A stretch of DNA of 58,503 nt, from NCBI GenBank assembly GCA_016190215.1, contig JACPRA010000024.1:1-58503 (forward strand), given 5' to 3'. Shown here piece by piece: positions 7,117 to 27,458 of the stretch. Position 1 is the stretch's first letter, and each line of letters opens with the position of its first letter. Position numbers and translations under genes: made by a program. This stretch comes from Candidatus Omnitrophota bacterium (GTDB taxonomy: Bacteria; Omnitrophota; Gorgyraeia; Aquiviventales; Aquiviventaceae). The notes under the pieces were generated by a model. The model was given only the letters and a program-made list of their open reading frames with translations. It was not told the DNA's origin and searched no databases.

Positions 7117-7148
7117 CGGCTCTATCTTGCCGATGCGCGCCGGAGCTG

Positions 7149-8483: not shown

Positions 8484-8498
8484 CCGCAACGACTCCTG

Positions 8499-10195: not shown

Positions 10196-11315
10196 CGAGC
10201 CGATTGGAGTCAGGCCCCCAGGCGCGAGGACGGTAGGCGCAGGCGGGATCCTCCGCGAGGTAATCGCCGGTGACGGCGTAGGCCCGCGCCCGGGACCCGC
10301 CGCAGACGCCGCGGAACTCGCACGCCCCGCAGCGGCCCTTCAACGCTCCAAGATCCCGAAGCTCGCGGAACACGGGCGCGTCCCGGTACACGTCGGCCAA
10401 GCGCGCCTGCCGAATGTTGCCGGCTGAGATCGGCAGGAACCCGCTGGGGCAGATGTCCCCGCGGCAGGACACAAACACGTGGCCCTTGCCGGCATTGACG
10501 GTCTGCGGCGCGGACTGGACGGATCGCGTGTGCGCGGCCGGGACCGGCGCGGCGGCATCGCCCTCCGAGGCGGCGCGCCGCTGTTGAAGAGCGTAGCGGC
10601 GGTAGGCCATGCCTTCGGTGATCTTGACGGTGAACGGGGCGCGGCGGGCCAGCGCATACACCTGGGCGAAGAGCTCTTCGCACTGCTGCGGGCTCAGGCC
10701 GGTGAGCGCGCTGCCCCGCCCGACCGGCACCAACACAAACACCTCCCAAAATACCACCCCCAGCCGCTCCACGCGCGCCATCAGGCTGGGGAAATCCTCA
10801 AAGAAATCCGCAGTCACCACGCTGTTGATCTGCAGCGGCAATCCGACCTGGTGGGCCCACTCCGCGGCCTGCATCACGAGATGGAAGGCGCCCGGCGCGC
10901 CGCGAAACCGGTCGTGCGCCTCCGGGGTGCCGGCATCGAGGCTGAGCGCCATCTGATCCAGGCCGGCGTCCTTCAAGCCGGCGACGGCATCGGCGGTCAG
11001 CCGCGGGGTGGCCGCCGGGATCGTGCCTACGCGCAGCCGCCGGGATTTGGCGTGCCGGATCAACGCGGGCAAATCGGGCCGCATGAGGGGATCGCCGCCG
11101 CTGAGCACCAACAGCGGCGCGCCCATGTCGGCGACCTGGTCCACAAGCTCCATACCCTCGGAGGTGGTCAGCTCATCGGGCAGCGGCAGCGGCTGCGCCG
11201 AGGCGCGGCAGTGCCCGCAAGCCAACGCGCATGCCCGCGTCGTTTCCCAAATGACGAGGAACGGCGTCCGGTCGAAATCCATCGCCCGCGGCATGCCGGG
11301 TCGGCCGTCAGTCAT
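10179..11315 (-). CDS. Radical SAM/SPASM protein, AhbD/NirJ2-like (heme b synthase-like)
   Basis: VIWETTRACALACGHCRASA, VNAGKGHVFVS..GDICPSGFLP, GRCGACEFRGVCGGSRARAYA..EDPAC. Confidence 0.8.
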   Translation of the reverse strand: MTDGRPGMPRAMDFDRTPFLVIWETTRACALACGHCRASAQPLPLPDELTTSEGMELVDQVADMGAPLLVLSGGDPLMRPDLPALIRHAKSRRLRVGTIPAATPRLTADAVAGLKDAGLDQMALSLDAGTPEAHDRFRGAPGAFHLVMQAAEWAHQVGLPLQINSVVTADFFEDFPSLMARVERLGVVFWEVFVLVPVGRGSALTGLSPQQCEELFAQVYALARRAPFTVKITEGMAYRRYALQQRRAASEGDAAAPVPAAHTRSVQSAPQTVNAGKGHVFVSCRGDICPSGFLPISAGNIRQARLADVYRDAPVFRELRDLGALKGRCGACEFRGVCGGSRARAYAVTGDYLAEDPACAYRPRAWGPDSNRLDDPLG

Positions 11316-11508
11316 CAAAGGGCCACCCCCCGCCGTTGCGTGTGAAAACGCAGCGGCGCTCGAAGCAGGGCGCGTGCTTATCCAAGCAGTTGACGATCTT
11401 CCAATCGCCGTTCGCCGGCTTGATGAGAATCGCCCACGCCTCTCTGTCGAAAAATCGGCAATGCTTGGGCAGGTATTTCGCGGCGGGTTGCGCGGATTGA
11501 TTCGGCAT
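11308..11508 (-). CDS. Small 4-Cys protein, paralog of 27195-27392
   Basis: 31/54 ungapped identities with the 27195-27392 product; 3' end overlaps the start of the downstream radical SAM gene; start 11508 or 11535. Confidence 0.8.
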   Translation of the reverse strand: MPNQSAQPAAKYLPKHCRFFDREAWAILIKPANGDWKIVNCLDKHAPCFERRCVFTRNGGGWPFDD

Positions 11509-11541
11509 CGGCGACGTGAGCGGCGGTGGAATCATGGGTGT

Positions 11542-11666
11542 GGTGTAGGGTGAAGGGTCAACGGTGAAGGGAAAACAGAATCGGTACGCATAAGGCGGCC
11601 TATGTTGTTCTTCAAACCTTCACCCTTCACCGAGAGCGCCATAGAGTCATTAGGATAGGCGCTCTC
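11542..11666. repeat. Heptamer-built inverted repeat plus hairpin
   Basis: GGTGTAG GGTGAAG GGTCAAC GGTGAAG (11542-11569) versus CCTTCACCCTTCACC (11617-11631); 9-bp stem GAGAGCGCC/GGCGCTCTC (11632-11666). Confidence 0.65.
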
Positions 11667-13428
11667 AGCAGGCCTCGGGCCTGCAGGCCGCCACCCAGTG
11701 GATCGGCGAGGCCTGCCTCGCCCACTTCCGCCGGCGCTGCCGCATCGGGGCATTGGCTTCATAAAACGTGGGCGGCTCGTAGGTCCATCCGGCCTTGAGG
11801 CGCTGCGCTTCCTGCCGAAGCTTCGACCACACGAACCGCCCGGCGAGGGGTGCCACCAGCCGGGCCCTGAATCCGACTTCCCGCGTAATCTCCTCCAACA
11901 ACTCGGAGAGCTTGTGAGCCAGCTCCGGGTTCTGTTCCCTGAACCATCGCCTCGCCGCCCAGAGCGTGGCGGGAAACGTGACGACCAAATCGCGGGCCTC
12001 CCAGGCGAAGCGGTTCCGCACGCACGGATCCGGGTGGTAGCGATAGCGCCGCCATCCCGCCAGGACGGTCCGCGCGATGCGCAGGACGCTGGGGCCGTTG
12101 ACCTCGAAATCCCGCCGAAACGCCCTCAAGATCAGCTCAGCCTCCTGCCCCGGCGGAATATGCGGGTGCAGGTGCCGAAACATGGCCTGCCCGTGGATGT
12201 CCCCTTCGTGATACGTCCGGGGGTCCCGAAGGGTGTTGTTGGCCAGATGCTCCGCGTAAAGCGCGGTGCCGGGAATAGGCGTGTAGAGCATGAACTGGTG
12301 AAAGTCCGTGCTGTGGCTGATCGCGTGCTCGATGACCTCATTGATGTTGTCGGGGGTATGTTCCTCGAGGCCGATGATGCTGGAGCCGAGGATCCGGATG
12401 CCGTGCGACTGGAGGGTGCGCACCAGGACGCGGGTATCAATGCCCTCCAGCTTGACGTACTGGCTGTTCTTGCCTTCCAACCCCATCCACACCCATGAGA
12501 TGCCCAACCGCACCAATTGCTCGATGGGATAGGACTGCACCACGCGCGCCGAGCTGAAGACGTAGAGCGACCACGCCTTGCCGTGCTCCTCCATCAGCTC
12601 CAACAACCGCAGGGCGCGCTTTTTATGCAGGAGGACGTTCTCATCCATCACGAAGAACGAGCGCACCCCCATGCGCCGCTCGATGCCGCGCATGACGTGG
12701 AAGAGCTCATCGCCGGTTTCATAAAAATTAATGAATTTGCCCTTCCCCCCGAACATCGCGGAGGTCGCGCAGAAATTGCACCCCATGGGACAGCCGACGG
12801 AGGGGATCAGGGTCGCGGCCGCTTCCCGCCCGCTGTTCTTGACCTCAATCCCCATCGTCCGCGTGCCGATGGCGGAGCAAATCAAGGGATGGCGGATCGG
12901 CAAGGTGGCGTCCTCCCCGAGAAACCGCTGAAACCACCGCACGCCCTCGCCGCGGACGACATGGTCCGCCCCCGCCTGCTCCCGGAGCTTCGGCACGTTG
13001 GCGACATGGCCGCCCACGACGATGGTGGCGCGCGGCAGGTGCTCCCGCACCAGGGCGCACATCGTCTTGACCTTCTCGACATTCGGCACGATCGCGCTGA
13101 TCCCCACGACGTCATACTCGTGGCTCTTCAGCTCGCTGATAAAGCGATCCAGGGTGGGAAAATCCAGCAGGGTGCAGGGCGCGTTGATGTTGGTCTGGAT
13201 CAGCATCAGGCCCCAAGAGCGGTGGAACATGCGCAACGAGAACGGCCCCTCCGCGCGCGTCACCTGGTTCTGATAGAGCTCCATCGGGTTGATGGCCCGG
13301 CTGCCGTACTCATCATCCCGGGCATACGGTCCGAACACGCTCGTCAGCAGGACCGTAGCGCGCGAACCCAGCGGATGGGTGGGCGCGGACGGCTCGGTGA
13401 CGACCTGGGTGTCAACATCAGGGCTCAT
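11665..13428 (-). CDS. Cobalamin-binding radical SAM protein
   Basis: DVVGISA..IVVGGHVA..VVRGEG (B12-binding fold), GCPMGCNFC, FFVMDEN, YTPIPGTALY. Confidence 0.85.
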   Translation of the reverse strand: MSPDVDTQVVTEPSAPTHPLGSRATVLLTSVFGPYARDDEYGSRAINPMELYQNQVTRAEGPFSLRMFHRSWGLMLIQTNINAPCTLLDFPTLDRFISELKSHEYDVVGISAIVPNVEKVKTMCALVREHLPRATIVVGGHVANVPKLREQAGADHVVRGEGVRWFQRFLGEDATLPIRHPLICSAIGTRTMGIEVKNSGREAAATLIPSVGCPMGCNFCATSAMFGGKGKFINFYETGDELFHVMRGIERRMGVRSFFVMDENVLLHKKRALRLLELMEEHGKAWSLYVFSSARVVQSYPIEQLVRLGISWVWMGLEGKNSQYVKLEGIDTRVLVRTLQSHGIRILGSSIIGLEEHTPDNINEVIEHAISHSTDFHQFMLYTPIPGTALYAEHLANNTLRDPRTYHEGDIHGQAMFRHLHPHIPPGQEAELILRAFRRDFEVNGPSVLRIARTVLAGWRRYRYHPDPCVRNRFAWEARDLVVTFPATLWAARRWFREQNPELAHKLSELLEEITREVGFRARLVAPLAGRFVWSKLRQEAQRLKAGWTYEPPTFYEANAPMRQRRRKWARQASPIHWVAACRPEAC

Positions 13429-15500
13429 GCCATCTCCTCAGTGGTGAAGCCCGCCCGCGCCAACAGCCTGCGGAGGAGCTGTGAAAAGAACACCGCGGCA
13501 AAGGTCGAAAACAACGCCAGCTCCTGGAGGCCGTGGAACACCAAGCCGCTGACATCCACGCGATCCAGGCGCCCCCACTTCAGGGCTTGCGCCGAGCGGC
13601 GCCAAAAACGCTGGAGCGACGCCCGGGACCAGGTCAGCGACTGCGCGCAGGGATTCCACCGCTGCAGCCACAGCCACAGGCGGGTCGGGACGGCAAGACG
13701 CACGCAGGGGAGCGCGTGCGGGACCGCATCCCGCAGCGCCTGCGCGGCGCGGCGGTACGCCTGCTGGAGCTCGGACGCGCGCATCCGCCGCCATCCCCGG
13801 ACGCTGGAGGGAATCTGCTTCAACTCCCCGATCACGCGCTGCTCCATCAGCGACCTCGGCCGGGTTTGCAGCCAGACCTCTTCCATCTCGAACGCCAGCC
13901 GCGGCCATAACACCAGGTAGCGGCGGAGATCGCCCAGCCGGCGCCTGGCGTACTGCCATCGCGTCTCGATCGGGAGCCCCGGCCGGCGCACCAGCCGCTC
14001 TTTGAGGCGCACAAACCCATGGACCATGGGGTGGCCGCGCTCAACCATCGTGGCGTTCTTGTACCAAATGAAATTGGCGAAGACCGACCAGTAGTTCTCG
14101 GCGCTGACCCGCCGCAAAATGCGCTTCATGTTCTCCACGTGATAGAACGACGCCCAGGCCGCCTCATAGGCGCCCGTCCACTCGCGGCGCGACATGCGCG
14201 GGTGGTCCGTGGTCGCATGGAACGAGTCGTACCGGTTGAGGTCCGGGTCCAACGGCGCGCCCTGCTGGAGGAGCTCCACGTGGTCGCGCGAACCCGGCAG
14301 CGGGGTCAGCATGAAAAAGGAGGCTTGTTCCGGGCCCAACTCATCCGTCAGGCGCTGGATATCCGCTGTGACCGACGCCGAGGTATCAAAGGGAAACCCG
14401 ATGATGTAGGCGACATGGGTATTGATGCCCGCCTCCCGGTACGCGCTGATCAGCGCCTGGAAATCCGCGATCCGGTTTTGGCGCTTGCCGGCGGCTTCCA
14501 AGTTCTGCGGATTCAGGCTTTCCAAGCCGATGAACACCTGCGCGCAGCCGGCAGCCCTGGCTTTGGCGATGAAATTGGGCAGCTTGTACGACTGGGTGTC
14601 CGCTTGCACCATGAAGCCGATCCGGATGCCTTCGTCCTGCCGCAGCCGGATGAGGCCGTCGAGAATCGCTTCCCAGTATTTGTTGCGGCAAAAATTATCA
14701 TCCGTAAAGAAGTAGGCGGAGATGCCGCGCCGGTAGTTCGCGCGGATCGTCTCGAGAATCCAGCCGACGTCGCGGAACCGCATCGCGCGGCCCTGGACAT
14801 TGATGACGGTGCAGAAGGAGCAGTTGAAGGGACAGCCCCGGCCGCAATCGAGCGTGCCGAAATTCGGCGCGACGAACCGCCGCAGATAGCCCGGGACGAC
14901 CCGCGGCATGGGGGCGGCCTGCAGCGCAGGCGGCTGCAGGAGAAAATCATAGACCGGCTGCAGCCGGCCCGCGACGGCGTCCTGCAGGATGCCCTCCCAC
15001 CGCGCTTCGATCTCGCCCGCCACCACGCTGACCCCGGCGTCGAGCAACCGCTGGATTTCCGGGGGGATGCCGGGCAGCATCGCCAGCGACCCGCTGACGT
15101 GGAAACCGCCGATGAGCACATCAATGCCGGCCGCCCGGCATGCCAGGGCCAGATCGCCGGCCCGCGCGAATTGATTGCTCTGCACCCCCACGAGGCACAC
15201 CAGCGCTTTCGTGCCGCGCCGGCGGCCGGCCCGCAGGATGCCGCGGAGGTTGACCCGCTGGACGGTCTCATCAATCAGTTCGACGCGCCACTGCAGCCGG
15301 CGTCCCAACACCCCGCGCTCCCGCACGTCTTCCGTCAACCCATAGAGGCAGGAGAGGGTATTGCTGGGAAGCACGCCCCGCCAATAGCGGATGACGTAGC
15401 CGTCCTCGTCATAATTCGACGGCTTGATCAGATAGATGACCAGGCGCGTGATGGGACGCCGGCCGGGCGCGCGGCGAGCGCCGTGCACAGGAGGCGTCAT
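13425..15500 (-). CDS. Cobalamin-binding-like radical SAM protein
   Basis: [41 protein letters not shown]; start 15500 gives an ATGA overlap with fabB. Confidence 0.85.
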
Positions 15501-16732
15501 GCGTCCGCTCCGCGCGCCGGATAGCGTTGAAACACCAGGCAGGCATTCGCGCCGCCGAACCCGAAGCTGTTCGACAGCACCGCCTGGAGGCGCGCATGGT
15601 CCTGACGCGCCGTCACAATCGGCATCCCCGACGCGCCGGGGTCCAACGTGTGGATATTGGCCGAGGCCGCGATGAAGTCGTGCTCGAGCATCAACAGACA
15701 ATAAATCGCTTCATGGACCCCTGCGGCGCCCAGCGAATGACCTGACAGCGACTTCGTGGAACTGATGGCCGGCACATCGCTGCCGAAGACTTCTGTGATC
15801 GCCCGCAGTTCGCACAGATCCCCAGCGGGCGTCCCGGTGCCGTGCGCGTTGATGTACTGCACCGGTCCCGTGACGGCGGCCAGCGCCTGCCGCATGCACC
15901 GCACCGCCCCGTCGCCTGATGGGGCCACCATGTCGCACCCATCCGAGGTGGCTCCATAGCCGATCAGCTCCGCAATGATCCGGGCCCCGCGGTTGCGGGC
16001 ATGCTCGAGCTCCTCCAACACCAGCGCCCCGCCGCCGCCGGCGATGACGAATCCGTCCCGGTGCGCGTCAAACGGACGCGAGGCGGTTGCCGGCGTCTCG
16101 TTGTGCGCGGAAGAGAGCGCGCCCATGGCATCGAAGAGCATGGCGAGCGTCCAGTGCTCCTCTTCCCCGCCCCCGGCGAACATGATGTCCTGCTGGCCCC
16201 ACTGGATATGCGCCATCGCGCTGCCGATGCAATGGGCGCTGGTCGCGCACGCGGAGCTGATCCCGTACCCCAGGCCTTGAATCTTGAATGCCGTGCTCAG
16301 ACACGCCGCCACGGTGCTGCTCATCGTGCGCGGGACCAAATAGGGGCTCACCCGCCGGATGCCGCCGCTCCGCAAGATGTCGGCCGCGCGCACGACATTC
16401 GCGGGAGACGCCCCGCCGGTGCCCATGATGAGGCCGGTGCGCGGATGGGACACGTCCTCAGCGCTCAAGCCGGCTTCCTCGATGGCCTGCCGCATGGCGA
16501 GATAGGCGAAGGCCGCGGCATCTCCCATGAACCGCCGGACCTTGCGATCAATCTGGGCTTCCACATCATCAATGTCCACGCTCCCGGCGACCTGGCTGCG
16601 CAGGCCATACTCGCGATACACGTCGTTAAAGCGGATCCCTGACCGGCCTTCTCGCAGCGACGCCAGCACCGTCGGCATGGTGTTGCCCAAGCAGGAGACG
16701 ATCCCCCGGCCGGTCACGACGACGCGTCTCAC
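15497..16732 (-). CDS. fabB: Beta-ketoacyl-ACP synthase I
   Basis: [54 protein letters not shown]; FabB-type signatures ([25 protein letters not shown]). Confidence 0.9.
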
Positions 16733-18174
16733 GACCGCTCCAGGACGGCGGCCCCGTCTCCGAGGAGGTACTGCACGACCTCCCGCGCCGTGTAGGAGGT
16801 CTTGCCGTCGTGGAGAAAATGACCCAGGCGCGTGACCTCATCTCCCGCCGTCACCAGCGGCCGCTCCACATAGCCGGTGCGCTGGCGCTGGGCCAAGCCG
16901 ATGGTCGCCAGGAGGCCGTTGCAGAGGCATTTACGGCCGATGGCGTCTTCCGGCTTGCCCCCTTTCTTGACATAGAGCTCCACCGGTTCCGCGGGACAAC
17001 GGTAGCCCAGCGAGCCGTCCGAGCGCTTGTACACGCTGCGCAGGTAGCCCAGGTCGCACAGCCGGGGCCGGTGGGCGTAGACGTCGGCCTCGGACAGCGT
17101 GCCCTCGACCGTCACCACCTTGAACGGAAACCCCGAGGCTGAGGCCAAGGGATCCGTGAAGACATCCACCTGCCCGCGGCGCGCCCGTTCCAGCACCGCC
17201 GCCTTCAGCTCCGGCGCCAGGCCGGATTCCTCGCTGAAGGCAAAGGCCGTGCCCACCTGGACCCCAGCCGCTCCCTTCGCCCGCGCGGCCCGAAGCCGGT
17301 CCGGATGGCCGTAGGAGCCTGCGAGCCAAAACGGCAGCCCCAGCGCGCGGATCTTCTCGAGATCCACGACGTCTTTGTCGCCGTAGACCGGCTCGCCCCG
17401 CGTATTAAGCTGCGGATCGCCGCGCGGCGGCGCATTGTGCCCTCCGGCCGTCGGCCCTTCGATGACGAAGCCATCCACGCGCCCCGTCGCCTTTTTCGCT
17501 AAGGTAAGGGCGAGGGTTGAGGAGGCGATGATCGCCAGGAACGCGGGCCGCCGCAGCGGAGGATGCGCAGCGGGCAGCACCAGCCTCGGGTCAAAGTGCA
17601 GCCGGTATTCATCGTCCCGACCGGCGCCTTCAACGTGCAGACGAATCGACACCGGCTCATGCCGCGCCAGCGAGTCCAGCGCTCCGGGAATCTCCCGCGG
17701 GATCCCCGCGCCCACCAAGACGTAGTCAACGCCGGCGAGTAACGCCCCGTAGAGGATGGGCAGCAGCGGCAGCTGAATCTTCTCAAGGAAGTTGATCCCC
17801 ACGAGGCCGGCGTGGCCTTCCTTCGCCAACCACACCTCCACGAACCCGGCGACCATGGCGAGTTCCTGTCGCGCGATGGTCGGCGAGGCGGTAAAGATGG
17901 GAACGCTCCGAAACGGCTGCTGCGGAGGCTTGCCGCCGGGCACGAAGTACGTCTCCAGCACGCGCGCGGCGGCCGCCGATGCCGGACAATGCGCCAAGGC
18001 CCGGCGCAGGTGGCCGGCGGGATCTCCGCACTGCAAGCGCCTGGCCAGGATGGCGTCCAAGGCCGTCCCCGAGACGACCCCCAACTGTCCCAGGCGAGAC
18101 ACCGCCCGGGCCAACGGCCAGCCTGAGACCCCGGCTCCCATCCCGCCCTGAATGATCAGCGGAGCGCCTCTCAT
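16729..18174 (-). CDS. Nitronate monooxygenase/FabK/FabX-superfamily FMN enzyme
   Basis: [38 protein letters not shown]; four C-terminal Cys. Confidence 0.8.
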
Positions 18175-19367
18175 GGCGTGCGTGCTATTTCCTCATTGGT
18201 GAGGTAACAGGCGGGGTCCGGCGCCCACACATCGCCGGTCGCCTGCAGCGCGCGGACCCGGAACGATCCGCCGCACAGCGGCTTCCATCGGCAGGTGCCG
18301 CAGCGGCCCTTCAGCAGCGGCAGGCGGTTGCGCAATCCGGCCAGCACCGGGTCGCGGCTATCCGTCCAGATCGCGCTGAAGGGCCGCTCGCGGATGCTGC
18401 CGAGGGTGTGCGTCTGCCAGAACTGATCCGGGTGGACGTTGCCGCAGGCGTCAATGTTCGCAATACCGACGCCGGAGGAATAGGCCCCGCCCCCGTTCCA
18501 TTCGAGCAGTTGCCGCGCCGCTTCAGCGCGCGCCGGGTCTTCTTGGAGCAGCTTCAAATAGAGGTAGGCGCCGTCCACGTGGTTATCCACGGTCAGGATT
18601 TCCACCGGGCGTCCGCGCGAGGCGAGGGCGCGCGCCCACGCGCAAATGCGATCCAGCACGGCGCGGGTCTCCGCATGCGTGAGGTCATCATTCGCCAGGC
18701 GGCTGCCGCGTCCGGAGTAGACCAAGTGATAGAAGCACACCCGATCAATCCCTTCGCGCTCGACCAGCTCGCAGATCTCCGGCAGCGCCTCGAAGTTGCG
18801 CCGCGTCAGGGTCAAACGCAGGCCGACTTTCTGGTGGACGGCTTTCAGGTGGCGCACGCCGTTCAAGGCCGCGTCAAAGGCGCCGAGTTTGCCCCGGAAC
18901 TGGTCGTTGACCTTGCCAAGTCCGTCAAACGAAATCCCCACATAGCTAAACCCCACCTGCTTGATCCGTTCCGCCGTCGGGCGGTCAATCAGCGTGCCGT
19001 TGGTGGAGAGCGTCAGCCGCAATCCGCGCTGCTTCGCATAGTCGGCGAAGTCAAACACGTGGGGATGGGCCAGCGGCTCGCCGCCGGAGAGCAGCAGCGC
19101 CGGGATCTGAAACTGCGCCAGGTCCTCGATCATGCGCTTGGCTTCCTCCAAGGTCAGCTCGCCGGGGTAGACGCGGTTTTCGGAATCGGAGTAACAGTGC
19201 ACGCAGTGGAGATTGCAGCGGCGGCTGATCGTCCACACGACGATGGGTTTGCGCTCGCTTGCTGATCGCGCGACCGGCAACCCGTCCCCTGCCCCCCGCG
19301 CGCGGCCGTAGCGCAACGCATCGCTGAGGCTGTCCTGTCCGTTGTAGAGTTTGGTGACGTTAATCAT
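18171..19367 (-). CDS. ahbC: Radical SAM/SPASM AhbC/NirJ1-like (Fe-coproporphyrin synthase)
   Basis: MINVTKLY..DALRYGR..KPIVVW..RRCNLHCVHCY, CFYHLVYSGRG, TVDNHVDG, VHPDQFW, APDPACYL. Confidence 0.82.
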   Translation of the reverse strand: MINVTKLYNGQDSLSDALRYGRARGAGDGLPVARSASERKPIVVWTISRRCNLHCVHCYSDSENRVYPGELTLEEAKRMIEDLAQFQIPALLLSGGEPLAHPHVFDFADYAKQRGLRLTLSTNGTLIDRPTAERIKQVGFSYVGISFDGLGKVNDQFRGKLGAFDAALNGVRHLKAVHQKVGLRLTLTRRNFEALPEICELVEREGIDRVCFYHLVYSGRGSRLANDDLTHAETRAVLDRICAWARALASRGRPVEILTVDNHVDGAYLYLKLLQEDPARAEAARQLLEWNGGGAYSSGVGIANIDACGNVHPDQFWQTHTLGSIRERPFSAIWTDSRDPVLAGLRNRLPLLKGRCGTCRWKPLCGGSFRVRALQATGDVWAPDPACYLTNEEIARTP

Positions 19368-19376
19368 GTTGAGAGG

Positions 19377-19601: not shown

Positions 19602-19639
19602 CTGTGTGTCATATCCTATAGCAGATGCTGTAGGCTGTA

Positions 19640-19657
19640 CTATGACGGGCGTCATAG
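19640..19657. promoter_or_regulatory. Crp/Fnr-type palindromic site 1
   Basis: CTATGAC-GGGC-GTCATAG; TAGGAT lies 21 nt downstream on the minus strand. Confidence 0.8.
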
Positions 19658-19684
19658 AGCCGCTCTTGGACGGGTGCGAGCCGC

Positions 19685-20410
19685 TTAGGAAGCGAGGCGG
19701 GGGGTCCGCCGCACAAAAATCTCTTGGCCGGCCTGGTCATCGAGGGCCAGCTCGGTCTCGCCCACCCGCACCACCAGCGCCGGGTGCGTTTGGCACAACC
19801 GGATGGGCCGGCCCGGCGCCAGGCCGAAGGCGCTGAGGCGCTGAAGGTAGGCGTGCCGCACGGTATGGATAAACACAATCTGCGCGGTTTCGCCCAGCGG
19901 CAAGCGGGCGACGGGAACGACGAGGGGTTCCACCGTCGCGCGCGAGGCCTGGCAACAGCGGCTCCGGGGAATGGCGCGGCCATGCGGGCAGCTGGGAGGA
20001 TGGCTCAAGAACAGGCAGACCGCTTCGGTCACCTCGGCATTGAGGATATGCTCGACTTGGCAGGCGGTGGATTCCAGGGAGGCATCCGAGACATCGAGCA
20101 GCACGTGGAGGAGCACCTCGGTCAGGCGGTGGCGCCGGACCACCTCCTGGGCCTTGAGCCTCCCCGCCTCGCTCAATCGAATATGCGGCCCCTCCGCCAG
20201 CAGCAGCCCGTGCTGCACCATGGCCTCAATGGTGTCCTGCTGGACGGCATGGTCCGGCTCAATGGGATGCGGCAAAAAACACCGCAGCTGGGTCGGCAAT
20301 CGGGCGCGATCCAAGGGCTCCAACCCGTCTTCGGCCGCGGTCCAGCAGAGTTCCAGCAATTCTTCGATTTGCTCGCGCGTGCTCGTCATCATCGTGGCCG
20401 GCAGGCGCAC
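19685..20410 (-). CDS. DtxR/MntR-family metal-dependent regulator with C-terminal FeoA domain
   Basis: EVVRRHRLTEVLL, ACQVEH, HPPSCPHGRAIP, LQRLSAFGLAPGRPI. Confidence 0.88.
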   Translation of the reverse strand: MRLPATMMTSTREQIEELLELCWTAAEDGLEPLDRARLPTQLRCFLPHPIEPDHAVQQDTIEAMVQHGLLLAEGPHIRLSEAGRLKAQEVVRRHRLTEVLLHVLLDVSDASLESTACQVEHILNAEVTEAVCLFLSHPPSCPHGRAIPRSRCCQASRATVEPLVVPVARLPLGETAQIVFIHTVRHAYLQRLSAFGLAPGRPIRLCQTHPALVVRVGETELALDDQAGQEIFVRRTPRLAS

Positions 20411-20577
20411 GCCTGCCAGCGCTCCTTAAACCAATTGACCAGGCGCGATTCCGGCGCCCACTCGTATCCGCACTGCGGGCAACGGGCCAGGCGGCACCCG
20501 GACGCGAGGGGACATTGCCGGCAGGCCCACACGGGCTCCGTCCGGTCCCACCACGCGCCGCACAGCGGACAGTTCAT
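20389..20577 (-). CDS. Small Cys-rich FeoB-associated protein
   Basis: MNCPLCG..ACRQCPLASGCRLARCPQCGYEW; ATGA-coupled to feoB. Confidence 0.8.
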   Translation of the reverse strand: MNCPLCGAWWDRTEPVWACRQCPLASGCRLARCPQCGYEWAPESRLVNWFKERWQACACRPR

Positions 20578-22532
20578 AGCGCCACCTTGAGGGCGGAGAG
20601 CACGCGAAACAGCAACCCGCCGACCAGAAACGCCACCCCGAACACAAACCCGGCCATGAGGTTGGCGAGCTTCCAGCCCCGTTCTTTGACCATCATGAAG
20701 TACTGGGCGATGCACGGAACGAAGAGCGTGATCGTGACGAGACTGACGACGATCTGGACCCCGTCCAACATCCCGTTCCGCTGCAGCATAAAGAGCCCTG
20801 CCGCGCCGAAATCCCGCCGGAGAAATCCCACCAGAAACGCGCCGGTGGCTTGGGCCGGCAACCCCAGCCACGACACGATCAGCGGCCGCCCCAGGCGTTC
20901 GAGCACCGCCAGGAGCCCGGAGGCATGGAGCAGAAACAACGCCAGCGTCCCGAGGAAAAACAGCGGGACCGCCTCTTTCACGTACCACTCCACCCGGCCC
21001 GCCGTCTTGATGAGGATGTTCGACGCTTTCGGCATGCGCAGCGGCGGGATCTCATAGAGAAACGGGCTGGCGTCGCCCGGCAGGAGCCGTGAAGCGGCTT
21101 GGCCGACCACCAGGATCACCGCGAACAAGACGCCGAGCCAGATGCCCAGCGCCAGCAGCGGGCGGCCGGCCAGCATCGCCATGATGACGCCTAATTGGGC
21201 GGAACAGGGGATGCCCAGCGCCAGCAGGAGCGTCACAATCACCCGCTCTCGCTCCGAATCGAGGATGCGAGAGGTCATCGTGGCCATCGTGTCGCATCCG
21301 AATCCCAGCACCAGCGGCAGGACCGCCTTGCCGTTCAAGCCAAGCAGCCGGCAGAACCGGTTGGCCATCACCGACAGCCGCGGAAGGTAGCCGACATCCT
21401 CGAGGAATCCGAAGCAGAGAAAAAACATCCCCACGATGGGCAGGATGATCGCAAAAGCATACGGAAGCGCCATCGTCAGCAATCCATATTCACCGACGAA
21501 GAGCGCCTGAAGCCACGGCCACGGGACCAGCCCGTGGACCATCCACTGGGCCGCGGGAATGAGGTAATGCCCGAACACTCGCTCCTCAAGGAAATCCACC
21601 CCGTGTTGGGCCGCGAGATCTCCAACCAGGACATACATGAGGGCCAACACGCCGGCCAGGATGGGCAGCCCCCAGAGCGGGTGCATGGCCAGATCACCCA
21701 ACGGCTTGAGCCGCGGCAGATGCGCCGACTCCTCAGCGGTCACAACGCGGTTCACGAGCCGCTGGGCCTCGCGAAGCCTGGCGTGGGCAATGAGCCTGCC
21801 CAACCGGCTTGAGACCTGCTCTTGAGCCTGCGCGGTGATGGCCTCGAGCGCTTCGACGCTCGCGGGGTCAAGCCGCGGCTTCAACTGCTCGAGGATGTTC
21901 CGATCCCCGGCCAGCCAGAGGAGCGCGAACGCCTTGCGGGCAGGCCACGCCTCCGGCAAGACGCGCAGCATCCGGGACACGGCGTCCTTGATGACGCTCG
22001 GGTAGCGCACGCTAGCCCGAGGCCGGCACGCGTCGGGAAGCGCCCGACGCAACCGCTCCAGGCCCCATCGCTGCGTCGCAATGGTCGCCGCGACGGGAAT
22101 CCCGAGCAGCCCGCGGAGCCCCTCGAGATCAATCGCCATCCGCCGTTCCCGAGCCTCATCCGCCATATTCAGGTCCAACACCATCCGGCATCCGGCCTCA
22201 GCCAACTCCAGCGTCAGCGTCAGGGCGCGCAGCAGGTTCTTGGCATCGGCAACCTGCAGGACGATGGCGTGGTCATCCAGCAGGAGATTGCGCGCCACGA
22301 GCTCGTCTTCTGAGGACACCTGGAGGCTGTTCAAGCCGGGGGTATCGCAGACGCGGAAGGTCCGGCCCTCCACGGAGGCCGAGCTTCGTGACACCGTGAC
22401 GGTCGTGCCGGGGTAATTTGAGACGGTGGCGTAGCAGCCGGTGAGCAATTGAAAGATGACGCTTTTCCCAACGTTGGGATTGCCGGTCACAATGAGGGTC
22501 GCGGCGTCCTCTACCGTGGCAGGAATCGTCAC
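20574..22532 (-). CDS. feoB: Ferrous iron transporter B
   Basis: GNPNVGKS, NYPGTTV, DTPG, NMADE, GFGC, IPCSAQLG. Confidence 0.95.
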   Translation of the reverse strand: MTIPATVEDAATLIVTGNPNVGKSVIFQLLTGCYATVSNYPGTTVTVSRSSASVEGRTFRVCDTPGLNSLQVSSEDELVARNLLLDDHAIVLQVADAKNLLRALTLTLELAEAGCRMVLDLNMADEARERRMAIDLEGLRGLLGIPVAATIATQRWGLERLRRALPDACRPRASVRYPSVIKDAVSRMLRVLPEAWPARKAFALLWLAGDRNILEQLKPRLDPASVEALEAITAQAQEQVSSRLGRLIAHARLREAQRLVNRVVTAEESAHLPRLKPLGDLAMHPLWGLPILAGVLALMYVLVGDLAAQHGVDFLEERVFGHYLIPAAQWMVHGLVPWPWLQALFVGEYGLLTMALPYAFAIILPIVGMFFLCFGFLEDVGYLPRLSVMANRFCRLLGLNGKAVLPLVLGFGCDTMATMTSRILDSERERVIVTLLLALGIPCSAQLGVIMAMLAGRPLLALGIWLGVLFAVILVVGQAASRLLPGDASPFLYEIPPLRMPKASNILIKTAGRVEWYVKEAVPLFFLGTLALFLLHASGLLAVLERLGRPLIVSWLGLPAQATGAFLVGFLRRDFGAAGLFMLQRNGMLDGVQIVVSLVTITLFVPCIAQYFMMVKERGWKLANLMAGFVFGVAFLVGGLLFRVLSALKVAL

Positions 22533-23743
22533 CTCGATCGCTCCGCCGCCCTCGCCAACGCCGCCGGCTTGCCTGCCCCGCGGGCCGTCAAACCCGGCAC
22601 GCGATCCGCCGCCGTCCGCAGCGCGGCGACACAGCAGTCAATCTCCTCAGGGCGCGTGAAATACCCGGGGCTGATTCGGATCGTTCCCTTGGGAAGCGTC
22701 CCGATGGCGTGATGCGCCCCCGGCGCGCAATGCAACCCGGCCCGCACCGCAATCTGGTGCGCCTCATCCAGCCACGCGGCCACGGCGCCGGGCTCGCAAC
22801 CCTCGACCGTCACCGACACGACGGCGACGCGGTCCGCCAACGCGGCAGGTCCGTAGACGATGAGGCGAGGGTCCGCCCGACACCCCTCCAGCAAGCGCGC
22901 CGTCAGCGACAGTTCATGCCGGCGAATCCACTCGACTCCATATTGGCCGATGAATTGGAGCGCGGCGCGCAAGCCGGCCAGCCCCAGCGTGTTCGGCGAG
23001 CCGGCTTCCATGGCATAGGGCCAGACCTCCGGCTGCAGCGGCAGCTCGGAGAGCACCCCGGTCCCCCCCTCGCGCCACGGGCGGAGCGCCGCCCGAGGCC
23101 CAACGTACAACCCCCCGGTCCCGGGCGGGCCGAGCAGCGCTTTATGGCCGGGGAATGCCAGCAGATCAATCCGGCTGCCCTGCACATCAATCGGGACCGC
23201 GCCGGCCGTTTGCGAGGCATCCACCAAGAACAGCCCCTCGCGCGCCCGCACGATGGCCCCGATGTCCGCAATCGGCTGCAGGGCTCCCGTCACGTTTGAG
23301 GCGTGGAGGACCGCGACCAATCTGGTCCGGACCGCCAAGGCCCGCCGGATCTCGTCCGGATCCACCACGCCTTCCGGGGACACCCCGACGCGCGTCACGC
23401 GGATCACCCCGTCCTGCTCAAGACGGTTGAGCGGGCGGGCCACCGAGTTGTGCTCCGCAACGGTCGTGACCACGTGATCGCCCGGCCGAACGCTGCCCTT
23501 AATCGCCATATTGAGGGCATCGGTCGCGTTCAACGTGAAGGCGATGCGCTCCGGCGCCTCGGCATGAAACAACTCGTTCAGCAGCCGGCGGGTTTCTTCC
23601 AGCAGCCCGTCGGCTTCGCGCGCCATCCGGTGGCTGCCCCGCCCCGGGCAGCCGCCATAGCGCTCCAGCGAGACGCGCAGCTGCTCATACACGCGAGCCG
23701 GTTTTGGAAACGAGGTGGCGGCGTTATCCAGATAGACGGCCAT
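22529..23743 (-). CDS. Class V PLP aminotransferase, cysteine desulfurase family
   Basis: YLDNAATSFPKP, EHNSV, HASNVTG, FPGHKALLGP, RAGLHCAP. Confidence 0.88.
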   Translation of the reverse strand: MAVYLDNAATSFPKPARVYEQLRVSLERYGGCPGRGSHRMAREADGLLEETRRLLNELFHAEAPERIAFTLNATDALNMAIKGSVRPGDHVVTTVAEHNSVARPLNRLEQDGVIRVTRVGVSPEGVVDPDEIRRALAVRTRLVAVLHASNVTGALQPIADIGAIVRAREGLFLVDASQTAGAVPIDVQGSRIDLLAFPGHKALLGPPGTGGLYVGPRAALRPWREGGTGVLSELPLQPEVWPYAMEAGSPNTLGLAGLRAALQFIGQYGVEWIRRHELSLTARLLEGCRADPRLIVYGPAALADRVAVVSVTVEGCEPGAVAAWLDEAHQIAVRAGLHCAPGAHHAIGTLPKGTIRISPGYFTRPEEIDCCVAALRTAADRVPGLTARGAGKPAALARAAERSR

Positions 23744-23970
23744 CAGTAGTAGCGCCGCGCCTCCCACAGCAACAGGGCCGCCGACAGCGCCAGGCATCCC
23801 AGTCCGACCCACAGGGTCACGGTCAGCGGCACGTCATAGGTTCCGATGCGCAGGGGGACGCGGACCACGAGCCGCGCCAGATGGAGCAGCCCCGCGATGC
23901 CGAAGAATCCGGAGAGCCATGTCGCCCACCAACATCGCGACCACATCCCGCCGCCCATCACGCGGCGCAC
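23743..23970 (-). CDS. Small two-TM membrane protein
   Basis: Two hydrophobic segments; stop overlaps the desulfurase ATG; start may be 23946. Confidence 0.65.
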   Translation of the reverse strand: MRRVMGGGMWSRCWWATWLSGFFGIAGLLHLARLVVRVPLRIGTYDVPLTVTLWVGLGCLALSAALLLWEARRYY

Positions 23971-25715
23971 TCCCCGGTCTCAGATGCCAACTGGAAGGGC
24001 TCGCTGGCGCCCAAATCCACGAAGAGCGACGCGTCGGAGGCGGCATCGCTCACGTCCGCCGTCTCACGAAGCAGGCGCCCGACCGCCTCAAGGCCGACCC
24101 GGTCCACCGCGGCGGAAAACGTTTCGCCGGGGCGCTTCTGCTCGTCGTACCACCGCACCAACCGCGTGAGGGCTTCCGGCGCTCGACGGGCCGGGACCCT
24201 GGCCAGCCGCTTGCCGAACGTTGCCGCGCCTTCCCCTGCCGACCCGCCGACCAGGATCTGATAGCCCGGAAGATACCGGCCGCCGACTTTGATGGCCGTG
24301 CCGAAGCATCCGATGTCGGCGATGAGGTGGTGGCCGCAGGAGTTCGGACATCCGGAAATCTTCACCGACACCGGCGCATCCGCCAGCGATGACAGGCCGT
24401 TGTGACAGAGCGCTTCAACGGCTTGCGCCAGGCCTTTCGGGTGCGTCATGGCCGACAGGCAGGTATCGGCGCCGGGACAACGCGTGACGTCCGCCAGCCG
24501 CCCGGCGGATGATTGCGCCAGCCCCATCCGATCCAGCGCCTCATACACCTGAGCGAACCGCGAGCCGGGCACGTCGCGGAGGAGGAGATTCTGGGTGGCC
24601 ATGCAGCGAACCCCTAAGGCGTGCTCTCTCGCGAGCTGCGCCACCCCGCGAAGCTGCGAAGCGGAGAGATCCCCGAGGGGGACCCGAACGATCACGCTGA
24701 GCCACCCGGCGCGCCGCTGCGGAACCACGTTCGTCAGCCGCCACTGAGGCGGGGCCCCGGCCGGAAGGGCTTCATCCGCGGCGTGGTCCCTCGACGTGGC
24801 TCGGGATGGTGAGCCTGCCGAACCACCGCCGGCTTCATCGTCCGCCGTCTCCACATCGGGAGGCAGCGCGCTGAGCATGCCGCCGGGCTGCGTGGCCCAC
24901 ACCAGCGATCGCTCCCGCACGACCGCGTCCTGGAACGCCTCCCACCCCAAACGCTCGACAAGGAATTTCAGCCTCGCGCGAGCCCGATGCGTCCGCTCGC
25001 CCAGCCGGTCAAACACCCGCAACGCCGCCTCGATGGTCGGCAGGAGCAGCGTCGCGTCCGTCCATGGCTCAAGCAGCCGGGCGGCGCGGGGCGCGGAGCC
25101 GAGGCCGCCGCCGAGGTAGATCCGGAACCCCCGGATGCCGTGTTGCCGCGCGGCCACCACCCCGATATCGTGAATCGCGGTCCGGGCATGGTCCGTCCGG
25201 CAGCCTTCAAAGGCGATCTTCACCTTGCGCGGAAGCAGCTGGGTGAGCGGATTGCGCAATAGATACTCGCTGACGGCGCGCGCATAGGGGGTGATGTCGA
25301 ATGGCTCCTCCCTCGACACGCCGGCCCAGGGGCAGCAGGTGACATTGCGCACGACGTTGCCGCTGGCCTCGCGGGTGGTCAACCCGGCACCCGCCAGCAT
25401 GCGCAGCAGCGCCGGCAAGCGCTGCCGTTGCACGCCGTAGAGCTGGACGCTCTGGCGTGTCGTCAGGTGGCAAGACCGCGTGGGTGTCAGGCTCTCGCAG
25501 ACGTCCGCCAAACCGTCCAGGTGCCTCGGCTGGAGGAGGCCCAGCGGAATGCGCACCCGCACCATGTGCGCGCTGGTGAACCCTCTCATCCGGTAGATGC
25601 CGTAGTGCAACCGCAGCGTCCTGAACACGTCGGCGTTGAGCCGGCCCTGCTCAAACCGAGCGAGCTGCCCGGCGAAGTGAAGGAATTCTGCGTCAACGAT
25701 CGCGCGCTCATCCAT
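23958..25715 (-). CDS. Second siroheme/[4Fe-4S] nitrite/sulfite reductase paralog
   Basis: HLTTRQSVQL, LPRKVKIA, RCPGADTCLSA, SGCPNSCGHH; same GECAA C-terminus as 4728-6521. Confidence 0.87.
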   Translation of the reverse strand: MDERAIVDAEFLHFAGQLARFEQGRLNADVFRTLRLHYGIYRMRGFTSAHMVRVRIPLGLLQPRHLDGLADVCESLTPTRSCHLTTRQSVQLYGVQRQRLPALLRMLAGAGLTTREASGNVVRNVTCCPWAGVSREEPFDITPYARAVSEYLLRNPLTQLLPRKVKIAFEGCRTDHARTAIHDIGVVAARQHGIRGFRIYLGGGLGSAPRAARLLEPWTDATLLLPTIEAALRVFDRLGERTHRARARLKFLVERLGWEAFQDAVVRERSLVWATQPGGMLSALPPDVETADDEAGGGSAGSPSRATSRDHAADEALPAGAPPQWRLTNVVPQRRAGWLSVIVRVPLGDLSASQLRGVAQLAREHALGVRCMATQNLLLRDVPGSRFAQVYEALDRMGLAQSSAGRLADVTRCPGADTCLSAMTHPKGLAQAVEALCHNGLSSLADAPVSVKISGCPNSCGHHLIADIGCFGTAIKVGGRYLPGYQILVGGSAGEGAATFGKRLARVPARRAPEALTRLVRWYDEQKRPGETFSAAVDRVGLEAVGRLLRETADVSDAASDASLFVDLGASEPFQLASETGECAA

Positions 25716-25908
25716 GAGCTGACGCTGGCTGGGGGGCTTGCTTGCGGCGCGCGCGCACGATGCGTTCCGCCTGGAGCCAATCCTCGACATCGCGGCCGTC
25801 CGTTCGCCCACGCTGTTCATACAAAGCGTGGGCGACACCGGCGATTTCATTGGCAAGGGAGTCCTGGCGCGGCTTCCGGCCCTGCGGTGATGATGCGGAA
25901 CGTGGCAT
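25708..25908 (-). CDS. DUF2934-like small protein
   Basis: IAGVAHALYEQRGRTDGRDVEDWLQAE; AGGAGG RBS. Confidence 0.8.
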   Translation of the reverse strand: MPRSASSPQGRKPRQDSLANEIAGVAHALYEQRGRTDGRDVEDWLQAERIVRARRKQAPQPASAHG

Positions 25909-25998
25909 CGAGCCTCCTGAGGTTACGGCGTCACCTGCGCGATCCAAGAATACAGCATAAGCCTTCGGAGGGAGCGTAGCGGTTTCGTGAGGCGGGCA

Positions 25999-26016
25999 CT
26001 ATGACCGGCGTCATAC
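25999..26016. promoter_or_regulatory. Crp/Fnr-type palindromic site 2
   Basis: CTATGAC-CGGC-GTCATAC; TACGCT lies 20 nt downstream on the minus strand. Confidence 0.8.
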
Positions 26017-26053
26017 AATCGTTCCCCGCCGGGTCATGGGAGAGGGGTGAAAG

Positions 26054-26083
26054 CCCGGCGAGGCCGAAGCCGGCCTCGCCGGG
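26054..26083 (-). terminator. Hairpin after nirK
   Basis: Perfect 13-bp stem CCCGGCGAGGCCG with a 4-nt loop, followed by CTTTC on the minus strand. Confidence 0.65.
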
Positions 26084-26092
26084 TGACACAAT

Positions 26093-27142
26093 CTAGGGAT
26101 GCACGAGACACCCGGCGCAGGTCGGCGCATCGTCCTGCGACAGGTAAATGTCATGCCGCGGTTTGCCGTCCACCTGCAGAAATCCCACGCCCCCTTTTTC
26201 CACCCGGAAGATGGCGTGGTCCACCAGCGTGTAGGTGCCAGGCACCTCCACGCCGAACTCGACGACGGTCGCTCCGCCGGCCGGCACGAGGGTCGTTTGG
26301 ATGCTGCGGGCGGGCGGGCTGATGAGATCGGCCTCGCGATAGACGCGGTCGAACACCTCCCCGATGACGTGGAAGGAGGAAATGAGGTTCGGCCCGACGT
26401 TGCCGAAGTAGATGCGCACCCGCTCGCCGGTCTTGGCCGTCAAGGCGCCTTCGCCCATCAAGGCGCCGACTTGGCCGTTGAACACGACGAACCGGGGGTG
26501 TTCCAGCGCCCCCTGTTCATGGGAAAACTCCAAGTGCGTCGCGCCCTCCGCCGGCTCCTTCGCGTAGAACTCGCTTTGCAGCACGTAGAACTCCCGGTCC
26601 ACCGGCGGCAATCCCGCCTTCGGCTCCACTAGGATCAATCCATACATGCCGTTGGCGATATGATCCATCACCGGCGGCGCGGCGCAGTGATACACGAACA
26701 ACCCGGGGTGCAGCAGCTTGAACCAGGCCACCCGCTCCTCGCCCTGGGTCACGGTGGTGACCGTCGCCCCTCCGCCGGGGCCGGTCACGGCGTGGAGATC
26801 CACGTTGTGCGGCATGCCGCTGCCGTCGCTGTTGGTGAGGTGGACTTCCAGGGTGTCGCCCTCGCGGGCTCGAATGAAGGGGCCCGGCACGTGATCGTTG
26901 AAGGTCCAAAAGGTGTAGGTGAGGTCGCTGGAGATGCTCGCCCTCTTCATTCCGGCATCCAACCGGACCCGCACCACCGCGGGTTGGCGCCGGGCGATCG
27001 GGGGAGGCACGGCCGGAGCAAACGTCAGGACCGCGTCCTCGGGCGACGGAGCGGGCTTCGATTTCGACTTCGCCAGCGCTGCCGGCAAGCCCAGCATGAC
27101 GGCCATCACGCCGATCAAGGCAATCAGGACGTACCGCCGCAT
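26093..27142 (-). CDS. nirK: Copper-containing nitrite reductase
   Basis: Signal peptide, PHNVDLHAVTG, YHCAAPPVMDHIANGMYG, SSFHVIG, LVDH; AGGAGG RBS. Confidence 0.93.
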   Translation of the reverse strand: MRRYVLIALIGVMAVMLGLPAALAKSKSKPAPSPEDAVLTFAPAVPPPIARRQPAVVRVRLDAGMKRASISSDLTYTFWTFNDHVPGPFIRAREGDTLEVHLTNSDGSGMPHNVDLHAVTGPGGGATVTTVTQGEERVAWFKLLHPGLFVYHCAAPPVMDHIANGMYGLILVEPKAGLPPVDREFYVLQSEFYAKEPAEGATHLEFSHEQGALEHPRFVVFNGQVGALMGEGALTAKTGERVRIYFGNVGPNLISSFHVIGEVFDRVYREADLISPPARSIQTTLVPAGGATVVEFGVEVPGTYTLVDHAIFRVEKGGVGFLQVDGKPRHDIYLSQDDAPTCAGCLVHP

Positions 27143-27194
27143 CGAGCCTCCTGGTTGAGTGACATGCCGCAGACGGGAAGACACCGGGGACGAA

Positions 27195-27392
27195 CTATGA
27201 CGCAAACGGCCAGCACCCGCCATCCATCGTGAACGCGCATTCCTTGCCGAAACAGTCGAGGTCCTTGTCCAGGCAGTTGACGATCTTCCAGGCGCCGTCG
27301 GGCGCCTTGGTCAAAATAGCCCATACCTCGCGCTGCATGAGCGCGCATCGGCACGGCTGGTATTTGACCTGCGTCGACTGGGACGCCTCCAT
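27195..27392 (-). CDS. Small 4-Cys protein, paralog of 11308-11508
   Basis: AAGGAGGG RBS; first gene after palindromic site 3; REVWAILTK..WKIVNCLDK..CF..CAFT..GGCWPF. Confidence 0.82.
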   Translation of the reverse strand: MEASQSTQVKYQPCRCALMQREVWAILTKAPDGAWKIVNCLDKDLDCFGKECAFTMDGGCWPFAS

Positions 27393-27440
27393 CGCTTCCC
27401 TCCTTGTTGAGGGCAGCATATCCCGCCGGCGGACGCGTGA

Positions 27441-27458
27441 CCATGACGGTGGTCATAT
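27441..27458. promoter_or_regulatory. Crp/Fnr-type palindromic site 3
   Basis: CCATGAC-GGTG-GTCATAT; TATGCT lies 20 nt downstream on the minus strand. Confidence 0.8.

Follow-up and report, generated by a model that had tools for sequence, protein, structure and literature searches.

Small four-cysteine proteins encoded beside AhbD-like and other radical SAM genes in one order of Omnitrophota

WhiB-like (Wbl) proteins of Actinobacteria are small, cytoplasmic and helical, with one distant and three clustered cysteines spaced C-xn-C-x2-C-x5-C that hold a [4Fe-4S] cluster sensitive to nitric oxide (NO). AhbD, a radical S-adenosylmethionine (SAM) enzyme of haem synthesis by the sirohaem route, requires an electron donor for the cleavage of SAM. 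Each oxidative decarboxylation by AhbD leaves an electron for an external acceptor, which is stated to be unidentified in a published account (PMC10452713). Here we describe two small genes, copy A and copy B, in a contig of 58,503 nucleotides (nt) from a Candidatus Omnitrophota bacterium (JACPRA010000024.1, assembly GCA_016190215.1; this whole stretch is called the window). It was found that both open reading frames (ORFs) are real genes and members of an unnamed family with four conserved cysteines (Cys4). The family is unrecognised and is tied to the question raised above about AhbD; the function proposed for it below is predicted from sequence and gene context.

Two genes of an unnamed Cys4 family

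The two genes and the repeat in front of copy B are as follows.
Copy A, 11308..11508, minus strand: small Cys4 gene of group I, 66 residues from ATG 11508, with a longer ORF from ATG 11535; called from its translation, orthologue starts and a positive codon-usage score.
Copy B, 27195..27392, minus strand: small Cys4 gene of group II, 65 residues from ATG 27392, with a longer ORF from ATG 27419; ribosome-binding site AAGGAGGG.
Inverted repeat, 27438..27455, no strand: perfect repeat TGACC-N8-GGTCA in the gap from the ccsA stop (27471) to the copy B start; differs from a canonical FNR box.

Both genes are read on the minus strand, which a preliminary description of this DNA had left unstated, and the plus-strand translations at the two sets of coordinates were meaningless. 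Otherwise its coordinates, identity count, cysteine spacing and motifs were as described. Counted from the translations, the 54-residue cores (KY...WPF) were identical at 31/54 positions without gaps, and C-x23-C-x6-C-x4-C, RExWAILxK, GxWKIVNCLDK and GGxWPF were found in both copies. BLASTP comparison of the longer ORFs gave 50% identity (E 2e-24). The ribosome-binding site of copy B, AAGGAGGG, lies 5 nt ahead of ATG 27392, in agreement with the strong site claimed for the copy that leads the nirK unit. A Crp/Fnr-type box had also been claimed, and here no TTGAT-N4-ATCAA with up to 2 mismatches was present 20-300 nt upstream of the first cysteine codon of either gene. The TGACC-N8-GGTCA repeat was not rarer than expected by chance: the window holds three matches at up to 1 mismatch, and 29/100 shuffled sequences reached three.

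Orthologues of copy A start about 8-10 residues ahead of the K/R-Y motif. The interval 11542-11666, between copy A and the gene upstream of it (B12_587, encoding a B12-binding radical SAM enzyme), contains GGTGAAG heptamer-type repeats at 11542-11571 and their complement at 11617-11632, pairing as a long hairpin; a separate 9-bp stem (11632-11640 with 11658-11666) lies directly past the B12_587 stop. Because one arm of the hairpin abuts ATG 11535, ATG 11508 is favoured as the true start of copy A.

Copy B served as the query of an exhaustive HMMER search against 1.84 billion representative proteins. Of the 46 hits, 43, with lengths of 65-129 residues, were true members. The remaining three (P0020, P0044 and P0045) were long repeat proteins matching residues 13-54 only, and were dropped as spurious. 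No fused form occurred among the true hits. When copy A was looked for among 5.8 billion proteins by a word-indexed search, the query itself was the only return. Among 41 related genomes, 24 matched at E <= 1. At E <= 1e-10, with a frame free of internal stops, matches were obtained in 19/26 relatives of the same order (17/24 from the family of the window and 2/2 from sister families) and in 0/14 genomes from other families of the class. In a phylum-wide sample, 6/401 genomes matched. The distribution of the family is limited to a single order of Omnitrophota.

Purifying selection was evident from a median ratio of nonsynonymous to synonymous polymorphism (pN/pS) of 0.35, with codon position 3 holding 50% of the differences (25 orthologues, 300 pairs; 4/29 sequences were excluded for a differing core length). 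A start codon with a Shine-Dalgarno (SD)-like motif 9-25 codons before the first cysteine was found in 15/29 family genes. The cysteines are kept in the homologues, as the preliminary description had led one to expect. In the alignment of 45 sequences, C49, C56 and C61 were invariant and C25 was present in at least 90%, an N-terminally truncated entry being among the rows without C25; C17, C41, C48 and C53 were invariant in the 23 locus-derived sequences. The idea that the ORFs are no genes at all, being chance frames in a genome of 67% G+C, draws on the abundance of long spurious ORFs in such DNA and on codon-usage scores that are low in absolute terms (9.0 and 7.6), as expected of short genes. 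Against it stand the frame open in every strong match, the low pN/pS with its third-position excess, the 43 true homologues with invariant cysteines and the SD-like sites. Its probability is negligible, and it is already refuted by the conservation.

Neither copy gave a hit at the curated cut-offs of Pfam-A or NCBIfam, and a sequence search of the PDB returned nothing below E 0.56, consistent with the claim that the family is an unrecognised one. When all 45 members were scanned, only sub-threshold hits appeared: Gp49 in 6/45 (best E 6e-4), FAS_pseudo-KR in 4 and Argos in 3. Kinship with Gp49/HigB toxins was rejected, as these hits were sub-threshold, limited to the 6/45 members and without the cysteine motif. 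There was no hit to rubredoxin (PF00301) and there were no CxxC knuckles in the two copies or the aligned sequences. The 2x/1x[4Fe-4S] ferredoxin motif CxxCxxCxxxCP occurred in 0/45 aligned sequences, with no Fer4 hit. Keyword searches of the literature, which cannot be made by sequence, found no description of the family, and one for AhbD together with NnrS found no matching paper. The 81-residue member P0004, at locus L039 ahead of an AhbD-like gene, has the NCBI name "hypothetical protein". In a protein atlas, the top match was the family's own Omnitrophota cluster, again "hypothetical protein", and the remaining rows were unnamed or implausible. The sequencing runs listed for the locus were five groundwater DNA runs from two studies, with no RNA run among them.

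Structure prediction with AlphaFold2 (AF2) and the 45-sequence alignment gave a best model with a predicted local distance difference test (pLDDT) of 89.2 and a predicted template modelling score (pTM) of 0.68, and the remaining four models had pLDDT of 70-73. The best model shows strands at 18-25, 30-38 and 44-49 and a helix at 54-59. For copy A with 23 sequences, the value was 58.9; the hairpin and a short helix were kept, and the Cys-rich half was below 50. Foldseek returned no match at E <= 1e-3, and VIA-align gave a best Z of 2.7 among 48,161 chains (2.4 on a second look), both with a query model that is not robust. Because the model is so unstable, the absence of structural matches does not demonstrate a new fold.

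Gene neighbourhood and haem context

The neighbours of the small gene were compared in 30 non-redundant loci (the window and 29 others), which hold 30 distinct genes, one of them split over two contig ends. Neighbours were labelled by tblastn likeness to the window proteins and by our own codon-usage-scored gene calls. A radical SAM gene stood directly downstream of the small gene in 18/30 loci, 10 of these being AhbD-like, or in 19 when a locus with a 1.4-kb gap is counted. The 3' neighbour was the AhbD-like radical SAM/SPASM gene rS379 in 8/30 loci, with 1/30 more past the 1.4-kb gap. The AhbD-like paralogue c13 (426 bits, TIGR04545) followed in 2/30, the AhbC/NirJ1-like rS398 in 4/30, and the B12-type radical SAM genes rS758 and B12_587 in 2/30 each. 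Other 3' neighbours were NifS (2/30), NMO-FabB (2/30), nirK (1/30, copy B of the window only), a 138-residue ORF with a NirA-like gene (1/30) and genes without a label (5/30). On the 5' side, the 30 loci showed B12_587 in 9, NirA-like genes in 6, hemerythrin/RIC-like genes in 3, CcsA in 2 and NifS in 1.

The tree of the cores was weakly resolved, with a support of 71/53 at the basal split. Group I comprised 13 genes including copy A; 10/13 lay directly 5' of an AhbD-like gene and 9/13 directly 3' of B12_587, the commonest 5' neighbour in this group. Group II comprised 17 genes including copy B, in mixed contexts. Four members of a diverged third subtype, without GGxWPF, were used to scan metagenome contigs, and 4 loci were returned. 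In 3/4 of these contigs the diverged gene begins about 20 nt past nirK, and a canonical family member comes next, directly or past a nitroreductase or methyltransferase gene. In the window, nirK directly follows copy B, and copy A is followed after 25 nt by rS379 and then by NnrS, NrfH and NrfA, just as had been noted. The generalisation drawn from this, one small gene ahead of each nitrite reductase module, fails as a rule (nirK downstream in 1/30 against a radical SAM gene in 18/30). A looser tie to nirK did hold up, in the diverged subtype and in three relatives treated next.

Co-occurrence was counted in the 26 relatives of the same order, which are incomplete metagenome-assembled genomes (MAGs), for four radical SAM types: B12_587, rS758, rS398 and AhbD-like. 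The small gene was present in 12/12 genomes with B12_587, 8/8 with rS758, 10/10 with rS398 and 13/14 with an AhbD-like gene; overall, it was found in 16/17 genomes with any of the four against 3/9 without. The 3 relatives with the small gene and none of the four types all carried nirK. No nirK match was obtained in 11/19 relatives with the small gene, in genomes that are incomplete. Given kinship and incomplete MAGs, these counts are better read as an island coming and going as a unit than as a statistical law.

The genome of the window encodes SirC, HemC, SUMT-HemD, HemB and HemL elsewhere. Fused AhbA/B was found in 15/16 relatives of the family and in 0/8 of the class's other families, and the window's own genome, which is 79% complete, gave no match to it. 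Together, these genes place the island in a lineage making haem by the sirohaem route. Three genomes (G001, G013 and G014) had fused AhbA/B and no match to an AhbC-like or AhbD-like radical SAM gene, and G014 also had HemE; MAG incompleteness may explain part of these missing genes. Rubredoxin and flavodoxin domains were each found in 0/19 genomes of the order; in genomes of other families of the class the counts were 7/8 for rubredoxin and 6/8 for flavodoxin. In the sister families G027-G033, rubredoxin genes were located within about 2 kb of flavodoxin-domain ORFs (e.g. G033 C6, G028 C6, G029 C2 and G031 C40).

The other genes of the island, in the order of transcription, are as follows.
29147-30952, minus strand: ResB, System II cytochrome c maturation.
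27471-29150, minus strand: CcsA, System II cytochrome c maturation.
26093..27142, minus strand: NirK, copper nitrite reductase with a Sec-type signal peptide (TIGR02376, 325.6 bits, cut-off 296.3); N-terminus MRRYVLIALIGVMAVMLGLPAALA.
23958..25856, minus strand: NirA-family sirohaem/[4Fe-4S] nitrite or sulfite reductase, 632 residues.
23743-23970, minus strand: hydrophobic membrane ORF of 75 residues, codon score 24.2, no Pfam family, between the NirA-like and NifS-like genes.
19685..23812, minus strand: NifS-like cysteine desulfurase (TIGR01977), FeoB and DtxR-FeoA regulator.
18171..19367, minus strand: rS398, AhbC/NirJ1-like radical SAM/SPASM enzyme (NirJ1 514.7 and AhbC 490.9 bits, both under the 650-bit cut-offs).
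16729-18174, minus strand: NMO/FabK-like flavoprotein, 481 residues.
15497-16732, minus strand: FabB-type ketoacyl-ACP synthase.
13425..15701, minus strand: rS758, large radical SAM enzyme of the B12-rSAM type, 758 residues.
11665..13428, minus strand: B12_587, uncharacterised B12-binding radical SAM enzyme, about 80% identical between genera.
10179..11282, minus strand: rS379, radical SAM/SPASM enzyme, AhbD-like (TIGR04053, 446.5 bits, cut-off 395); start MDFDRTPF, from orthologues.
8951..10195, minus strand: NnrS (PF05940, E 5.8e-33).
8499-8960, minus strand: nrfH (PF03264).
7149-8489, minus strand: nrfA (PF02335, E 7e-133).
6736-7152, minus strand: ORF of 138 residues, no Pfam family, directly before the second NirA-like gene.
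4728-6521, minus strand: second NirA-like paralogue.

The roughly 50 genes called in the window are nearly all on the minus strand, the plus strand holding three short, low-scoring ORFs. Transcription runs from ResB and CcsA through copy B to NirK, the NirA-family gene, the 75-residue ORF, NifS-like, FeoB and DtxR-FeoA, then from rS398 through NMO/FabK-like, FabB, rS758 and B12_587 to copy A, rS379 (starting 25 nt past the copy A stop), NnrS, NrfH and NrfA. The 138-residue ORF, the second NirA-like reductase, a sulfate permease and Rrf2 come last. Genes for multihaem cytochromes, Rieske/cytochrome b, a hemerythrin and a Crp/Fnr regulator are located upstream. Against the AhbD model TIGR04545, rS379 scored 295.6 bits, below the cut-off of 500. 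The likely start of nirK is the signal-peptide methionine at 27142, and that of rS758 is probably downstream of 15701, because orthologue alignments begin at residues 58-88.

Several further features of the island were observed. NirK ends (26093-26131) in ...DDAPTCAGCLVHP, a short Cys-x2-Cys tail past the cupredoxin domains. The 75-residue hydrophobic ORF is kept in 4 other loci, and in 2 of these the NifS-like gene comes right after it. Homologues of the 138-residue ORF (114-153 residues) precede a NirA-like gene in 8 other loci, and this ORF may encode a partner of the reductase that has gone unrecognised. A protein of 700 residues without a Pfam family (37328-39430, minus strand) is encoded between the Rieske protein and a multihaem cytochrome, and stands beside that cytochrome in L029, L039 and L046 as well.

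Proposed role and its alternatives

No signal peptide was read in the translation of copy A or copy B, and with four conserved cysteines a small cytoplasmic metal or iron-sulfur (Fe-S) protein is the natural reading. Our proposal, held tentatively and at somewhat less than even confidence, is that the small protein is a cytoplasmic Cys4 metal or Fe-S protein acting as redox or metal partner of radical SAM enzymes. Its conserved core consists of a predicted N-terminal β-hairpin and, after it, a Cys-rich half, C-L-D-K-x4-C-x4-C-x-F-T-x2-G-G-x-W-P-F/Y. The first cysteine, at the end of strand 1, and those of the Cys-rich half would provide four thiols, most likely the ligands of one predicted metal centre, either an Fe-S cluster or a mononuclear Fe or Zn. 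Copies A and B are paralogues, in a family of proteins with about 60-80 residues that belongs to an accessory gene island of this one order, and the gene order of the island is shuffled among loci. The island combines haem synthesis by the sirohaem route (AhbC-like and AhbD-like SPASM enzymes) and two uncharacterised B12-type radical SAM enzymes with iron and sulfur supply (NifS and FeoB), NirA-like reductases, NirK, NrfHA, cytochrome c maturation and the NO-related genes NnrS, hemerythrin/RIC-like, Crp/Fnr and Rrf2. The group I protein would serve the tightly coupled AhbD-like enzyme, either by taking up, as external acceptor, the electron that oxidative decarboxylation leaves behind or by donating one for SAM cleavage, and group II would serve the remaining Fe-S enzymes of the island. 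The partnership with the AhbD-like enzyme appears to be the best-motivated specific version. Metal binding, redox role and the identity of the partner are all predictions from sequence. The predicted complex of rS379 and copy A scored 0.00 in a run without controls, which is evidence neither way.

A bolder version, which we regard as unlikely, would see in the family a novel kind of mini electron carrier, based on Fe-S (or Fe) and with a fold not shared by others. It would be the physiological redox partner of AhbD-type, SPASM and B12 radical SAM enzymes, standing in for rubredoxin and flavodoxin in a lineage of Omnitrophota that respires nitrite and has a reduced genome. A number of observations weigh against a carrier or partner role. 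The predicted structure is not robust across models, and the cysteine spacing matches none of the signatures known for Fe-S proteins, rubredoxins or zinc ribbons. The genes next to the small gene are of mixed kinds (radical SAM, NifS, NMO, nirK and unlabelled genes), and would fit co-regulation as well as partnership. The small gene is absent from 7/26 relatives, one of which carries a nirK fragment and one (G007) an AhbD-like gene, so that this enzyme apparently can do without the small protein. The co-occurrence counts overstate the case, because the kin are not independent. As to the missing carriers, flavodoxin domains of the sister families are mostly in ORFs of about 390-420 residues near rubredoxin genes, and these look like flavodiiron-rubredoxin modules; the absence of rubredoxin and flavodoxin from the order may thus reflect lifestyle and not replacement. 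It is also one lineage-level event, and lends the carrier role weak support.

The partnership was weighed against three other roles. In the first, the small protein would act in NO or redox stress, as a labile sensor with an Fe-S cluster or thiol, as a decoy or in repair. Its gene would share regulation with nirK, NnrS and the hemerythrin/RIC-like gene, and the protein would not be dedicated to radical SAM enzymes. This role seems improbable to us, though it ranks first among the three. It would account for copy B heading nirK in the window, for the diverged subtype within about 20 nt past nirK in 3/4 metagenome contigs, for the hemerythrin/RIC-like gene 5' in 3/30 loci, for NnrS and the Crp/Fnr and Rrf2 regulators within the island, and for the nirK found in all 3 relatives that have the small gene without a radical SAM partner. 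It fits less well with nirK downstream in 1/30 against radical SAM genes in 18/30, and with nirK unmatched in 11/19 relatives with the small gene (incomplete genomes, as said); no DNA-binding or known sensor domain was found with Pfam and NCBIfam. No supporting evidence was found for the Crp/Fnr partner that the preliminary description had offered as an option, and its metallochaperone option is unlikely in the form of a copper chaperone for NirK, since NirK carries a Sec-type signal peptide for export, which the small protein lacks. An adaptor role, through structural zinc (Cys4) or a sulfur relay, aiding the assembly or stability of the Fe-S enzymes of the island, for example with persulfide sulfur or clusters from the NifS-like desulfurase and without carrying electrons, is considered a little more doubtful again. 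Four conserved cysteines within a very small domain would suit it, as would NifS, FeoB and DtxR sharing the island and NifS standing 3' in 2/30 loci and 5' in 1/30. Yet adjacency to NifS is a minority pattern, and Pfam and NCBIfam revealed no likeness to SufE, SufU, TusA, Nfu or A-type carriers.

The least probable of the three, with little chance of being right, is that the small protein is a substrate: a ribosomal precursor that the radical SAM/SPASM and B12 radical SAM enzymes encoded next to it would modify into a ribosomally synthesised and post-translationally modified peptide (RiPP) or a cofactor derived from a peptide, as with PqqA and MftA. Precursors are classically encoded by a small Cys/Trp-rich ORF directly upstream of a SPASM gene, and a SPASM-type gene (rS379, c13 or rS398) was indeed counted directly 3' of 16/30 small genes. 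The GGxWPF/Y tail is conserved and one model predicts the Cys-rich half poorly, both in keeping with a modified peptide. On the other hand, conservation spans the whole 54-residue core without a leader/core split, both structure models contain a predicted β-hairpin, fused forms are absent from the 1.84 billion representatives, and the two to three paralogue groups occur in varied contexts, including before NifS, NMO and nirK. The annotated neighbours, among others that carry no annotation, include no PqqD-like recognition domain, peptidase or exporter. It is haem enzymes that the radical SAM neighbours are like, and the alignment of rS379 with StsB, a model of sactipeptide maturases, begins only at model position 98. 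The N-terminal region of the model, which we take to be the peptide-recognition element, is therefore missing from rS379. A substrate role is less likely than a helper role.

If the redox partnership with the AhbD-like enzyme is true, the electron acceptor or donor for which studies of AhbD in vitro still substitute artificial reagents would have a name, and a new Cys4 metal-binding fold would be added. Where the small gene is called, it carries just the label hypothetical. It marks a component, conserved and without annotation, of an island of haem synthesis and nitrite respiration that sets one groundwater order of Omnitrophota apart from the rest of the phylum. The reach is limited to this uncultured order, with a role predicted from sequence and gene context.

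Comparison with known systems

Rubredoxin and other mini Fe-S carriers (small ferredoxins and HiPIP) resemble the Cys4 family in having 50-80 residues, four cysteines, a cytoplasmic location and aromatic residues around the Cys-rich part, and in having genes scattered beside the redox enzymes that they serve. The small family differs from them in its spacing of C-x23-C-x6-C-x4-C, without CxxC knuckles, CxxCxxCxxxCP or a Pfam match, and with a structural best Z of 2.7, and its metal centre is a predicted one. The likeness to Wbl proteins is a loose one of architecture only, namely a small cytoplasmic protein with one distant and three clustered cysteines. In contrast to these, the Cys4 family is predicted to open with a β-hairpin, has x6/x4 spacing and gave no Pfam Whib match.

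Precursors of SPASM maturases (PqqA, MftA and SCIFF) share with the small genes a position directly 5' of a SPASM gene and a conserved C-terminal aromatic/Gly motif. Members of the Cys4 family are longer, are conserved over the whole core and have paralogues in contexts without radical SAM genes. With respect to the AhbD system, we know of no characterised example with such a partner gene, and the neighbour in question is not a certified AhbD (295.6 bits, or 426 for c13, against a cut-off of 500), the window copy falling in TIGR04053. The resemblance lies in the coupling of group I to an AhbD-like SPASM gene (10/13), in a lineage that has the sirohaem branch and AhbA/B.

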